A DNA stretch of 64,000 bases from Candidatus Woesearchaeota archaeon. GTDB lineage: Archaea > Nanobdellota > Nanobdellia > Woesearchaeales > GW2011-AR9. The stretch lies in assembly GCA_018696595.1 (NCBI GenBank), contig JABHQW010000003.1, positions 160,001 to 224,000 on the forward strand. Direction: 5' to 3'. Under the pieces are notes generated by a model. That model did no database searches. It saw nothing but the letters and a program-made list of their open reading frames with translations, and was not told where the DNA came from. The stretch's first letter is position 1. Every line of letters begins with the position of its first letter. The position numbers and the translations under genes are program-made. Shown piece by piece: positions 34,321-54,408 of the stretch.

Positions 34321-37266
<2,946 letters not shown>

Positions 37267-37428
37267 TCTTGTCTTTGTGTATGGCTCATCAATATGATGT
37301 AATTTCGTGATGGAATTGTGAAACTCTCACTCCATCATATCTTAACCAATAACCGCCAAGAATTAAAATTCTTGAAGATTTATGTTTTGTGCCCTAAAAA
37401 AACTCAATGGATTTTCAGGAACACAAAA

Positions 37429-37504
37429 TGGACCCGTCGGGATTCGAACCCGAGGCCTCCTCCTTGCAAGGGAGGCGCTCTAATCCGGACTGAGCTACGG
37501 GCCC
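37429..37504 (-). tRNA. tRNA-Ala(UGC), CCA not encoded
   Basis: Cloverleaf: acceptor GGGCCCG, anticodon arm CCTCC-CTTGCAA-GGAGG, T-loop TTCGAAT; lies in the 16S-23S spacer. Confidence 0.97.
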
Positions 37505-37546
37505 GGTAATGATTTTACATATGTTCTTTTTTTATAAAAAAAAAAA

Positions 37547-39112
<1,566 letters not shown>

Positions 39113-48645: not shown

Positions 48646-48795
48646 TTTGGTTGGAAGTAATGGAACAATCTATTTAAACATTATTAATCAATATTCAATA
48701 GTGTTTATGAGGAAATAAAGAATTGTTTATTGATTATCAAAATTTCTGTCATTTTATGAGAAAAGTTTATATATACTTACTCCTTAGTGGTAAAT

Positions 48796-50544
48796 ATGTC
48801 TCTTGAAGAAGATGAAAATCAATATACTGAAGAAGATTATGGGGGACCCCACTATAGAACTGGAGGCATGGCATATTATGGAGAAGGAGACTTAGAAGAC
48901 AGATTAGGTTTCTTAGTAGCCAAACATGATAAAGATGGTGATGGTTGGGAACTTAGTACATCATGGGCATTATACTCAAAAGATGGTAATAATCGTAGAT
49001 TTGGTGGTTCACATGATAATATTTCAGGAATAAGAACATTTCCAAATGGATTACAATTTCTAAATACTGATAACAAGATACAGCGTAGTTATTTCTCAAT
49101 AGAAGGTATTGAATTTAGTGTTGGTTATCACGGACCCCAATCACATGATAACATAGTGGCTAATTTTGCAAATTGGCAAGAATATTTTAGTTATGATAGA
49201 ATAAATCCAAAAACTTTACAATCAGTTAAAAATTGGTTAATGGATGATAATAATCCAATAGATCAAATAAAAATAGAATTAGTTGCCGAAATTTCGGAAA
49301 AATGTTTATTAGATAAAAGTGAAGCACTCTTTGGGATTAATCCAAGTGAATTTTTAGATATATTCTCTGAAGGTTTAAGAAACCCATTTTATCAGAACTT
49401 ATTTTCCCAAGTCATAGATTATTACTTTGAGCTGGGAGAGACTCAACTTAACCCTCATGAACTTAATGAAGCAATTGTTAAGAATACTGCTCAATGGTAT
49501 TCCGAAGCAAGGCCATATGAAGAGGATCTTCGTAAAAAAGCTGATTCTTTGGCAGAAGGAGCAAATGCAAAGGATTGCTTAGATGCAATATTAAAACAGG
49601 GCCGATTTTCCAGTGTTAAAGAGTTAGGAGAATGTGCAAGTATTCAATTACCACATCATTACGTCATCAAGAAACATGCTTCTGGAGGATGGAGCCAAGT
49701 ATATCTAATTATAGATAAAGGAGAAACAGATGAAGATTTCATTAAAGTACTCAAAGTTCCAAAAAATAATATTGACATGAATAAAGATCCCAACGTTAAG
49801 AAAATAATTGAAAAAAATTCTAGTATAGAAAACACCCTTAAAGCAATTGCGGAGGAGGAAAAGAGAATTAATAGCAAAACATCCAACACATCTAATGATA
49901 ACTTTCCAAATTTTGAATATCGTCCATTGCCACAGTTCCACGAAAGTTACGTAGGGAATAACGGAATCCCATTATTAATTTACGAATTTATTCGTGGGGA
50001 AACCCTAGAAGATCATTTTGAAGAAGAAAGGCCACTTGAAGAAAAGTTAGATGTTTTAACTAGAACCGCATATTCATTAAACTATATTCACCAGAAAGGA
50101 TTTACTCATAATGATATTAAAAAAGATAATTTCATGAGAAGTGAAGTTAATGATAGAGTTTACTTATTAGACTTAGGACTTTCCAGAGTTACTGAATCAG
50201 ATTCAAGTATTCGTGGAAAAAGAGCTTATGCCGCTCCAGAAAGAATAACGGGACAATCTAACCCCTCTGAAGAAGCAGATCAATATAGTTTTGGAGTGAT
50301 GGCTTATGAAATTCTTACAGGAGAATTACCCATTGACTTTGGAGAAACTGAAGAAGAAAAAGCAGAGATGGTTATAAAAGTAAGAGATGGCGAAGTTCTT
50401 CCAGATTACGAATTGCTTAGAGAAAGAGTACCTTCACAACTTGCAGAAATAATTGAAATTTGTTTATCTTACGACCCAAAAGACAGATACGGATCTATGC
50501 AAGAGGTTGAAGATCAATTATGGGCATTGCAGAATCCTGATTAG
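48796..50544 (+). CDS. Hanks-type Ser/Thr protein kinase with an unknown N-terminal region
   Basis: GGWSQVY, VLK, HNDIKKDN, DLG, YAAPE, DQYSFG. Confidence 0.88.
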   Translation: MSLEEDENQYTEEDYGGPHYRTGGMAYYGEGDLEDRLGFLVAKHDKDGDGWELSTSWALYSKDGNNRRFGGSHDNISGIRTFPNGLQFLNTDNKIQRSYFSIEGIEFSVGYHGPQSHDNIVANFANWQEYFSYDRINPKTLQSVKNWLMDDNNPIDQIKIELVAEISEKCLLDKSEALFGINPSEFLDIFSEGLRNPFYQNLFSQVIDYYFELGETQLNPHELNEAIVKNTAQWYSEARPYEEDLRKKADSLAEGANAKDCLDAILKQGRFSSVKELGECASIQLPHHYVIKKHASGGWSQVYLIIDKGETDEDFIKVLKVPKNNIDMNKDPNVKKIIEKNSSIENTLKAIAEEEKRINSKTSNTSNDNFPNFEYRPLPQFHESYVGNNGIPLLIYEFIRGETLEDHFEEERPLEEKLDVLTRTAYSLNYIHQKGFTHNDIKKDNFMRSEVNDRVYLLDLGLSRVTESDSSIRGKRAYAAPERITGQSNPSEEADQYSFGVMAYEILTGELPIDFGETEEEKAEMVIKVRDGEVLPDYELLRERVPSQLAEIIEICLSYDPKDRYGSMQEVEDQLWALQNPD

Positions 50545-52676: not shown

Positions 52677-52710
52677 AAAAATAAAAAATAAAAGATTTGG
52701 AGGAAAGAAA

Positions 52711-52863
52711 ATGGAACCATTAGAAAAAATGATAGAAGGTTATAGAAGATTAGAAACAGAAATAGAAACAGATATTGGCTATCAAAAATTAGAAGTTAAT
52801 TATGGGAACAAAGATTTAAAGTTAACCCATGAACAATGTCCAAGCCAATGTTCAAATAAGTAA
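52711..52863 (+). CDS. 50-aa putative RiPP precursor peptide
   Basis: GGAGG SD at 52699; MEPLEKMIEGYRRLETEIETDIGYQKLEVNYGNKDLKLTHEQCPSQCSNK; stop lies 8 nt before the radical SAM start. Confidence 0.7.
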   Translation: MEPLEKMIEGYRRLETEIETDIGYQKLEVNYGNKDLKLTHEQCPSQCSNK

Positions 52864-52871
52864 TAACAAAA

Positions 52872-54248
52872 ATGATAATGACTAACCCGAAAACTCGGAT
52901 ATGGGAAATAGGAAATAAAAAAGTAATGTTTAATTCATTACATGGAAAGCCATTAATACCAACCGAGGGGTTAATCAGATTATTAGAAACTTTTAAAGAA
53001 CCAAGAGACCAAGAAGACATCATCAAAACAGTTAGTCAAAAAGAATTAAGAATAATTGAGGACTTGGTCTCAATGGACTTTTTAATAAATCCCCTTAAAG
53101 ATGTTTATGAAAAAGTTAAAGAAAGAGAGAAACAAGAACTTAATAATAACTTAGAGGGATTAAACCTTTATAATCTTAGACTAAACGTAACCTCTTCTTG
53201 CAATCTTGCGTGTCAATATTGTTATGTATATCAAAGAAAAGAAGAAATTTCTTCTTTTAAAAATATGAGTACAGAAATTGCAGAAAAATCAATATCTCTT
53301 TTCTTTAAATTTCTTAAAGAAAAAGAAGAGCAAAGAATACAAACAAAAGCTATTCCCAAAATAAGATATTTTGGAGGGGAACCCTTAATCAATTTCCCAG
53401 TAGTCAAAAGAAGCGTAGAACTAACAAGTCGTTTGGCAGAACAATACAATATTAAGGTCCAATCGATAATCAACACAAATGGTACAATATATGATCAGGA
53501 GATAGAAAAATTTCTTTTAAGTAACCAAGATTTAAATTTAATAATTAGTTGGGATGGATTAGGAGATTACCATGATTTAGTAAGACATTCCAAAAATAAT
53601 GAAAAAAGTAGTAAAAAGATAATGAAGAACTTTGAAAGGATGATGGACCAAGGGATAAGACCCACCATCAGTTGTGTACTATCAGAAAGAAATAAGGACC
53701 ACCTTAAAGAATTCATTGATTATTTAGCAGAAAAAAAATTAAAATATTTTGGCATTAGTGTACAAACAGTCTCACAAACAGGCGACAAAATGAGTTCAGA
53801 AGAAAAAGCAAAAAGATTAATAGAAGTTATGAGTTATGCTAAAGAAAAAGGAATTGAAGTTGATGGGCCGTGGTCTTGGCAATACAGGTTATTTAATGAC
53901 AACACAGAAGTTTCTTATTGTGGAGCAGTAGGAGGAGAAATCCATGTAAGTGAAAATGGAACAGCCCACCCCTGCCATTTAGTTAAACTAAAATATGGTG
54001 ATATCACAAAAATAAAAAAACTAGAAGAATTATTTGTTTCTCAAGAATATAAAACAATAATTAACAGAACAATATCTGCAATGTATGATGATTGTAATTC
54101 TTGCGATTTAGAAGGTTTATGCGCAGGTGGATGCATGGCAGAATCCTATGAAAGAACAGGAGATTATTCGAAAAGAGGAGAAGGGTGTGAATTTAAAGTA
54201 GAAATGACAAAACAGTTATTAGAAAAATATCTAGAAGAGATGGACTAA
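52872..54248 (+). CDS. Radical SAM/SPASM peptide-maturase-type enzyme with an N-terminal RRE-like domain
   Basis: CNLACQYC, YFGGEP, NTNG; SPASM C-x17-C...Cx2Cx5Cx3C...C; about 75-aa wHTH-like N-terminus. Confidence 0.9.
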   Translation: MIMTNPKTRIWEIGNKKVMFNSLHGKPLIPTEGLIRLLETFKEPRDQEDIIKTVSQKELRIIEDLVSMDFLINPLKDVYEKVKEREKQELNNNLEGLNLYNLRLNVTSSCNLACQYCYVYQRKEEISSFKNMSTEIAEKSISLFFKFLKEKEEQRIQTKAIPKIRYFGGEPLINFPVVKRSVELTSRLAEQYNIKVQSIINTNGTIYDQEIEKFLLSNQDLNLIISWDGLGDYHDLVRHSKNNEKSSKKIMKNFERMMDQGIRPTISCVLSERNKDHLKEFIDYLAEKKLKYFGISVQTVSQTGDKMSSEEKAKRLIEVMSYAKEKGIEVDGPWSWQYRLFNDNTEVSYCGAVGGEIHVSENGTAHPCHLVKLKYGDITKIKKLEELFVSQEYKTIINRTISAMYDDCNSCDLEGLCAGGCMAESYERTGDYSKRGEGCEFKVEMTKQLLEKYLEEMD

Positions 54249-54288
54249 TTAAAACAAATTTTACAAAAATAATTAGGTGGTAAAAAAG

Positions 54289-54408
54289 ATGAAACAACAA
54301 TGCCAAGCTAAATGCCGCAATGAGACTGATTGCTTAAATAAAGCTTTACCAGAATCAGATTATTGCTGGTTACATAAAAGAAGAGAAAAAGAGAGTAATA
54401 AACAATGA
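54289..54408 (+). CDS. 39-aa CCCH zinc-finger-like microprotein
   Basis: AGGTGG SD; MKQQCQAKCRNETDCLNKALPESDYCWLHKRREKESNKQ. Confidence 0.6.
   Translation: MKQQCQAKCRNETDCLNKALPESDYCWLHKRREKESNKQ

Follow-up and report, generated by a model that had tools for sequence, protein, structure and literature searches.

TigE, CteB and SuiB are peptide maturases of the same build, all three combining a RiPP recognition element (RRE; RiPP, peptide made by the ribosome and modified after translation) with a radical S-adenosylmethionine (SAM) domain and a SPASM domain. CteB and its substrate CteA, a SCIFF peptide, are encoded by a cassette of two genes to which no protease or exporter is dedicated, and the function of the product is unknown. 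SCIFF peptides are conserved in sequence and contain six cysteines in about 45 residues; in the CteB structure, the open iron of an auxiliary cluster takes the substrate cysteine. PapA, the substrate of the ranthipeptide maturase PapB, carries six repeated C-x3-D motifs, and TigE acts on repeated aliphatic motifs, not on cysteines. QhpD makes Cys-Asp/Glu thioethers via RRE-guided recognition, and CrpC from Methanococcus voltae is an archaeal RRE-radical SAM-SPASM enzyme shown to install ranthionine links in which the cysteine precedes the acceptor; the authors regarded a C-x-x-Q/D motif in CrpA and CrpB as a hint of thioether formation (PMC13692751). Clusters predicted to yield ranthipeptides and sactipeptides have already been reported by genome mining across archaea including the DPANN superphylum, and archaeal RiPP work has so far yielded lanthipeptides (PMC12144867). 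A characterised short radical SAM-modified peptide from archaea was not found in the literature searched, the nearest case being CrpC/CrpA (2026) with a large protein as substrate. Here, a cassette of two genes is described which is located in a stretch of 64,000 nucleotides, referred to as the window, from a Candidatus Woesearchaeota archaeon (assembly GCA_018696595.1, contig JABHQW010000003.1, positions 160,001 to 224,000). It consists of a gene for a 50-aa peptide with two cysteines near its end and a gene for a radical SAM-SPASM enzyme, and it is fairly probable that they constitute a RiPP-type system, in which a leader-guided maturase introduces thioether bridges, ranthionine or sactionine, into the precursor.

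The candidate precursor gene extends on the forward strand from 52711 to 52863, with an ATG at 52711 and the stop codon at 52861 to 52863. Direct reading revealed a Shine-Dalgarno-like GGAGG motif at 52699 to 52703, 7 nt ahead of the ATG. Since such motifs were detected in only 10 of the 35 large open reading frames (ORFs) of the window, the GGAGG of the peptide gene is a distinct signal. After an intergenic gap of 8 nt, the enzyme gene follows on the same strand (52872 to 54248, 458 aa); a start at the second ATG of this frame, at 52878, would yield the 456-aa form present in databases. The enzyme gene has no Shine-Dalgarno-like motif of its own. Residues 1 to 38 of the peptide (52711 to 52824) are acidic and contain two G-Y-x-x-L-E motifs, at residues 10 to 15 and 23 to 28, and a Y-G-N triplet; by analogy with RRE-dependent systems, this part may act as leader. 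The putative core, residues 39 to 50 (52825 to 52860), ends with C-P-S-Q-C-S-N-K, placing C43 and C47 at C-x3-C spacing within the last 12 residues. A first-pass annotation, made from the letters of the window and a list of its ORFs, had described a 50-aa ORF with a GGAGG signal ending 8 nt before a 458-aa enzyme, the repeated motif, the Y-G-N triplet and the C-terminal cysteine pair; coordinates and direct reading agree with this description in every part.

The enzyme was characterised by Pfam and NCBIfam searches as well as by AlphaFold2 modelling and Foldseek comparisons. Pfam matches were obtained to Radical_SAM (65 bits), Fer4_12 and SPASM (24.2 bits with a cut-off of 21.5, residues 350 to 412). 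In an alignment of 65 homologous sequences, the radical SAM cluster motif C110-x3-C114-x2-C117 (53199 to 53222) and the seven SPASM cysteines C350, C368, C408, C411, C417, C421 and C439 (53919 to 54188) are either invariant or conserved to at least 90%, so that the CxxxCxxC motif and full SPASM cysteine set ascribed to the enzyme beforehand are common property of its relatives. The seven SPASM cysteines would fit two auxiliary 4Fe-4S clusters, one of them with an open iron site. The AlphaFold2 model of the enzyme (pLDDT, predicted local distance difference test, 93.9) was matched over its full length by TigE (E 5e-26, query TM-score (TMq) 0.74, 473 columns), CteB (E 6e-22, 483 columns) and SuiB, these alignments spanning 470 to 480 columns. 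The N-terminus, residues 1 to about 95 (52872 to 53156), is modelled as three or four strands followed by three helices, an RRE with a linker helix. When residues 1 to 98 were modelled separately (pLDDT 89.5; three strands followed by three helices), nearly all of the best matches in the PDB were RREs, namely the TigE N-terminus, the PbtF RRE, LynD/TruD, TbiB1, McbB and MccB, with probabilities of 0.9 to 1.0 and TMq values of 0.44 to 0.65, the E-values being 0.02 to 0.5 only. Pfam PqqD did not match residues 1 to 100 at E-values up to 10, and the assignment is therefore based on the fold. Thus, of the winged helix-turn-helix or PqqD-like N-terminus suggested at first, the RRE stands as predicted by fold, and a PqqD match at the sequence level was not obtained.

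Among the NCBIfam models, that of the PapB ranthipeptide maturase gave the best match (156.4 bits, residues 101 to 433; cut-off 340), followed by DynA (112 bits), QhpD (110 bits), FibroRumin, the SCIFF maturase (103 bits) and other peptide maturases. Weaker matches were those to TIGR04463 (92.7 bits), YhhB (88 bits), the anaerobic sulfatase maturase (anSME) model TIGR03942 (85.8 bits), GrrM/OscB (67 bits) and FxsB (64 bits). No curated cut-off was reached, and the enzyme consequently belongs to none of these families. PapB was also the top model for four close stand-alone homologues of 457 to 461 aa and for one larger fusion protein that was scanned. The solved structures nearest by sequence were TigE (E 7e-24, residues 15 to 452), CteB (E 2e-18) and anSME 4k37 (E 3e-15). 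The TIGR03942 and 4k37 matches to the enzyme core could indicate an anSME or a different SPASM enzyme of housekeeping type whose substrate is a folded protein. The TIGR03942 score, however, is far under the cut-off of 349 bits and compares with 156 bits for PapB, and the anSME structure aligns over about 380 columns, leaving out the RRE. Sulfatases modified by such enzymes contain the motif C/S-x-P/A-x-R. This motif is missing from the core of the window peptide, and no sulfatase was detected above cut-off in the genome, which is 97% complete. The anSME interpretation is close to refuted, and the enzyme stands apart from the sulfatase maturases, as the first-pass annotation had implied.

The main support for the small ORF as substrate comes from the surroundings of related enzymes. 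Adjacent to genes for enzymes 22 to 33% identical to that of the window, a short ORF on the same strand was found at no fewer than 12 other loci; it carries a C-x(1-3)-C motif that is in most cases C-terminal. Four of these loci belong to the clade of the homologues P0002, P0003, P0020 and P0024, and their ORFs all end with a C-x-C motif: L002 (1783 to 1899, upstream, 38 aa), L004 (3891 to 4004, 37 aa), L018 (986 to 1108, 40 aa, 8 nt from the enzyme gene) and L111 (1615 to 1728, 37 aa). Seven loci are from the same archaeal class as the window, with enzymes 26 to 30% identical. Their ORFs show a C-terminal C-C-x-C-C (L010), a C-x3-C-H-D unit present once or twice (L011, L014), several C-x(1-3)-C motifs (L012), or a cysteine-rich C-terminus (L013, from the taxonomic family of the window), or they are cysteine-rich and located downstream of the enzyme gene (L009, L118). 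A cysteine-rich downstream ORF is also present at L105 of the same-genus genome G402, where the enzyme is 22% identical. The loci L015, L019, L116, L117 and L119 are ambiguous or cut by contig ends. As background, all 344 small ORFs of 30 to 80 aa in the six frames of the window were inspected: the motif occurs in the last 14 residues of eight and anywhere in 31. With this background of 2 to 9%, the pairing of enzyme and cysteine peptide is far beyond chance, and the neighbouring cysteine peptides that were to be looked for at homologous loci are indeed there. The related peptides have a design in common with that of the window, a short acidic N-terminal part and a cysteine pair near the end, rather than a sequence; the C-terminal cysteine pair is the single feature which the window peptide has in common with the peptides beside related enzymes.

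Binding of the leader to the enzyme was also addressed by complex prediction with the enzyme, three 4Fe-4S clusters, SAM and the peptide as input. A score of 0.54 was obtained (runs 0.44, 0.54 and 0.77), the best control reaching 0.01; at least 30% of contacts were common to the runs, and the pLDDT of the partner was at least 42. Of 80 solved complexes, 58 reach the mark applied to this score, as do two of 110 mismatched pairs, and seven of those 80 solved complexes and both mismatches reach it with scores of 0.60 or lower. Since peptide complexes of CteB and SuiB have already been solved, the pass may reflect likeness only, and the prediction lends weak support to binding. Together with the pairing, these data bear on the possibility that the substrate is not the small ORF, or that this ORF is not translated at all, the enzyme acting on another peptide, a protein or a non-peptide beside which the ORF lies incidentally. 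Such an arrangement would agree with an orphan peptide, with an enzyme gene devoid of its own Shine-Dalgarno motif, and with the loci L015, L019, L116 and L117, some of them cut by contig ends, at which a clear cysteine peptide was not seen. It is improbable, however, in view of an RRE, from which a peptide leader is to be expected as ligand, a suitably spaced GGAGG, an 8-nt gap that recurs in L018, the pairing at the other loci and a complex score set against flat controls.

If the two genes form a thioether-installing cassette, the N-terminal leader of about 38 residues would dock on the RRE of the enzyme and thereby place the core, residues 39 to 50, in the radical SAM active site. SAM would be cleaved at the C110/C114/C117 cluster, and the resulting 5'-deoxyadenosyl radical would take a hydrogen from a carbon of the acceptor residue. 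The sulfur of C43 or C47, held at the open iron of the first SPASM auxiliary cluster, could then couple to the carbon radical, giving one or two intramolecular thioether bridges, each with a loss of 2 Da. The similarity ranking, with PapB, QhpD, CteB and CrpC-like enzymes, favours ranthionine-type bridges, in which the sulfur is joined to a beta or gamma carbon, over sactionine, in which it is joined to an alpha carbon. Residues just after each cysteine may be the acceptors, that is C43-x-x-Q46 and C47-x-N49. Confidence in this assignment is low, since the related peptides have no conserved acceptor.

Several observations weigh against this proposal. The enzyme lies below every curated family cut-off, so the chemistry is transferred by ranking only, and TigE, the closest solved structure by both sequence and fold, is a cyclopropyl synthase and not a thioether synthase. 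In the phylogenetic tree, the window enzyme forms a long branch of its own (1.55), and no well-supported clade surrounds it. The 50-aa peptide has no detectable sequence relative, and consequently substitution patterns cannot probe its coding status. Following the cysteines, no acceptor residue is conserved across the related peptides, and a protease, exporter or immunity gene is not present in cis.

Accordingly weighed was a cassette with the same leader guidance and another chemistry, such as cyclopropane formation as by TigE or TvgB, a three-residue cyclophane at Y-G-N, a modification of G-Y-x-x-L-E or an epimerisation; the cysteines would then be cluster ligands only or be left free. TigE surpasses CteB as best PDB match, the cyclophane families YhhB, GrrM/OscB and FxsB as well as DynA are among the NCBIfam matches, and the peptide does contain the repeated motif and the triplet, the L010 peptide aligning with a similar Y-G-K-x-D-L stretch. 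PapB, on the other hand, scores well above all those models. Moreover, the cysteine motif is the sole feature recurring in the peptides, and the repeat unit of L011 itself includes the cysteine pair, whereas neither an aromatic triplet nor an Ile/Val-Gly repeat occurs at related loci and the G-Y-x-x-L-E repeat is absent from all related peptides compared. A different chemistry is thus rather unlikely, although it is the main alternative, TigE being the closest structure. A more speculative and somewhat less likely idea is that the orphan lineage makes an undescribed type of cross-link, for example thioethers from cysteine to Gln or Asn side chains, forming two tiny C-terminal rings, or a non-thioether change at G-Y-x-x-L-E. 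The peptide, still bearing its leader, would act in the cell or at the contact to the host archaeon; it might handle metals, take part in redox processes or serve as a signal in a DPANN symbiosis, and would not be a secreted antibiotic.

The exact sequence of the window peptide is found as an annotated gene on 41 public contigs, and its own genome has a single copy of the gene. When 5.8 billion clusters were searched, the only match was a copy 98% identical, and BLASTP comparisons with the L011 and L010 peptides produced no alignment. An M-E-P-L-E start common to the peptides of the window and L014 was considered as a sign of homology and rejected, the peptide homology searches being null. The sole strain variant, on the public metagenome contig L112, differs by one base (P44Q) at a coverage of 2.7x. 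L112 also opens with an adapter-like stretch (1 to 35) not found in the window. Because of the low coverage and the adapter-like start, the difference, which may be an error, is uninformative regarding coding, and strain variation was dropped as a coding test.

The enzyme lineage was explored by three kinds of searches. An exhaustive HMMER search yielded 110 representatives at E-values below 1e-30, and a word-index search only two relatives, near 30% identity. In a scan of a genome collection with patterns from the subfamily alignment, which are generic radical SAM motifs, the relatives among the matches listed were 21 to 28% identical and nearly all bacterial, and no further subfamily members were among these matches. 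A quick maximum-likelihood tree placed the window enzyme inside an unresolved group of 27 rows, together with a clade of fusion proteins and the well-supported clade of P0002, P0003, P0020 and P0024. The fusions (P0008 to P0013), which were the top HMMER relatives, measure about 1,130 aa and join an RRE-radical SAM-SPASM module to a Peptidase_MA_2 domain and a second radical SAM domain; such a protein may be an all-in-one maturase that includes its own leader peptidase. At two loci encoding fusions, L110 (1821 to 5228) and L016, two acetyltransferase genes adjoin. A cysteine-rich ORF of 111 aa is located downstream of the fusion gene in L110, and a gene for an Rce1-like protease is present in L016. 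One archaeal genome of 0.7 Mb has two related cassettes, L014 (G085:C1) and L012 (G085:C5). In L014, the RRE is encoded by a separate ORF of 82 aa overlapping the start of a catalytic ORF of 387 aa, which represents a split or a frameshift. The C-x3-C-H-D unit of the L014 peptide is duplicated in L011 (G290).

The genome harboring the cassette, assembled into 8 contigs, comprises 1.19 Mb. A complete archaeal 16S-tRNA-23S operon on the reverse strand (34325 to 39112), 13.6 kb upstream of the cassette, attests the archaeal host assumed by the first-pass annotation. The cassette is surrounded by genes for an NYN-domain protein, a 43-aa Cys/His ORF, a DUF483 protein, a Ca/Na antiporter and a Ser/Thr kinase. 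These neighbours are not repeated beside the homologues, where tRNA synthetases, methyltransferases and other genes are found. A larger operon was rejected as a model on these grounds, and the conserved unit is the two-gene pair. The kinase domain is C-terminal in a protein of 585 aa (48787 to 50544, forward strand) with weak, generic matches to PknB-type kinases, kinases of defence systems and lanthionine-synthetase kinase domains; this protein did not turn up at those homologue loci that were inspected. The composition of the cassette (30.4% G+C compared to 33.3% in the window) was tried as a sign of transfer and rejected, as it gave no signal.

The 43-aa ORF (54277 to 54408, forward strand, likely start ATG 54289 after AGGTGG) could be a second or even the true substrate of the enzyme. 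It begins 29 nt past the enzyme gene on the same strand, an AGGTGG precedes the internal ATG, and its opening stretch Q-C-x3-C-x-N has the C-x3-C spacing of the peptide core. Homologues exist, however, in three genomes of the same family (G129, G132 and G201) that lack a match to the enzyme, and a like ORF does not follow the enzyme gene in related loci. Judging from its Cys/His spacing and weak zinc-finger-type matches (zf-C3Hc3H and HGGxSTG), the 43-aa ORF looks like a small zinc-finger protein, and a role as substrate is very improbable.

Processing and export functions were sought both near the cassette and in the whole genome. The contig is devoid of ABC (ATP-binding cassette) ATPases, the five matches in the genome being all on other contigs. 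The genome contains neither a C39 peptidase nor an MA-type peptidase above cut-off; a trans-encoded peptidase of either type was accordingly rejected. The earlier observation that a protease or exporter is not seen nearby thus applies to the contig for ABC ATPases and to the genome for these peptidase types. Without such genes in cis, the product may remain intracellular or depend on general factors, a situation also supposed for SCIFF peptides. Elsewhere in the genome, on the reverse strand of contig G000:C8 at about 61.7 to 63.2 kb (L114, 1366 to 2472), a second radical SAM/SPASM protein of 368 aa without RRE is encoded. Its best matches, to WgkB, NirJ and AhbD-type models, are weak, and it adjoins a protein of 211 aa with an N-terminal hydrophobic segment and several cysteines. 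The cassette was not found in two genomes of the same genus (81 to 84% complete). Enzymes at E-values below 1e-20 were detected in six of 401 genomes sampled across the phylum and nine of 401 sampled across the class, counting the own genome. The cassette is therefore rare in the class.

Systems of this kind are well known; new are the particular orphan peptide, the divergent enzyme lineage and the minimal cassette in a reduced genome. Comprising two genes within 1.5 kb, and with two cysteines and a core of 12 residues in the peptide, the locus is a near-smallest possible test case and hence a cheap target for heterologous co-expression. An experimental result would show why a reduced genome of 1.19 Mb without a dedicated protease or exporter keeps a peptide-modifying enzyme, and it would add an anchor for predicting sactionine or ranthionine formation in a poorly sampled branch of SPASM enzymes. 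Should an ordinary ranthipeptide turn out to be the product, the gain will be incremental.

The cassette was compared with the closest known systems. QhpD/QhpC (TIGR03906) is represented by the third-best model, which extends over residues 62 to 455, but its cut-off of 453 bits is not reached and its substrate is an enzyme subunit; a gene for a dehydrogenase subunit is not apparent beside the cassette, no search having been aimed at such genes. The CrpC family (TIGR04463) has a cut-off of 525 bits, far from the score given above, and the CrpC substrate CrpA is a large repeat protein of about 29 kDa, not a 50-aa peptide, whereas the C43-x-x-Q46 arrangement of the window core resembles the motif in CrpA and CrpB. 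TigE/TigB (PDB 8VPO) is closest in structure by sequence and fold, RRE included, but TigE is only 21% identical to the window enzyme, and the core of the window peptide has no repeated aliphatic motif. CteB/CteA (PDB 5WGG/5WHY, TIGR03974) has the same RRE-radical SAM-SPASM build over the full length. CteB is nevertheless only 20% identical, the cut-off for its family is 425 bits, and the window peptide differs from SCIFF peptides in having two cysteines, no relatives and no NCBIfam or Pfam match. From PapB/PapA, known for freyrasin (NF047865), the window system deviates by an enzyme score under half the cut-off, by an archaeal host lacking a protease or exporter at the locus, and by a peptide with two cysteines that are not followed by Asp or Glu. 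On the other hand, PapB provides the best curated model over the whole radical SAM-SPASM core, and both systems have a short cysteine-bearing precursor beside the enzyme, with a thioether to a side-chain carbon as the chemistry to be expected.

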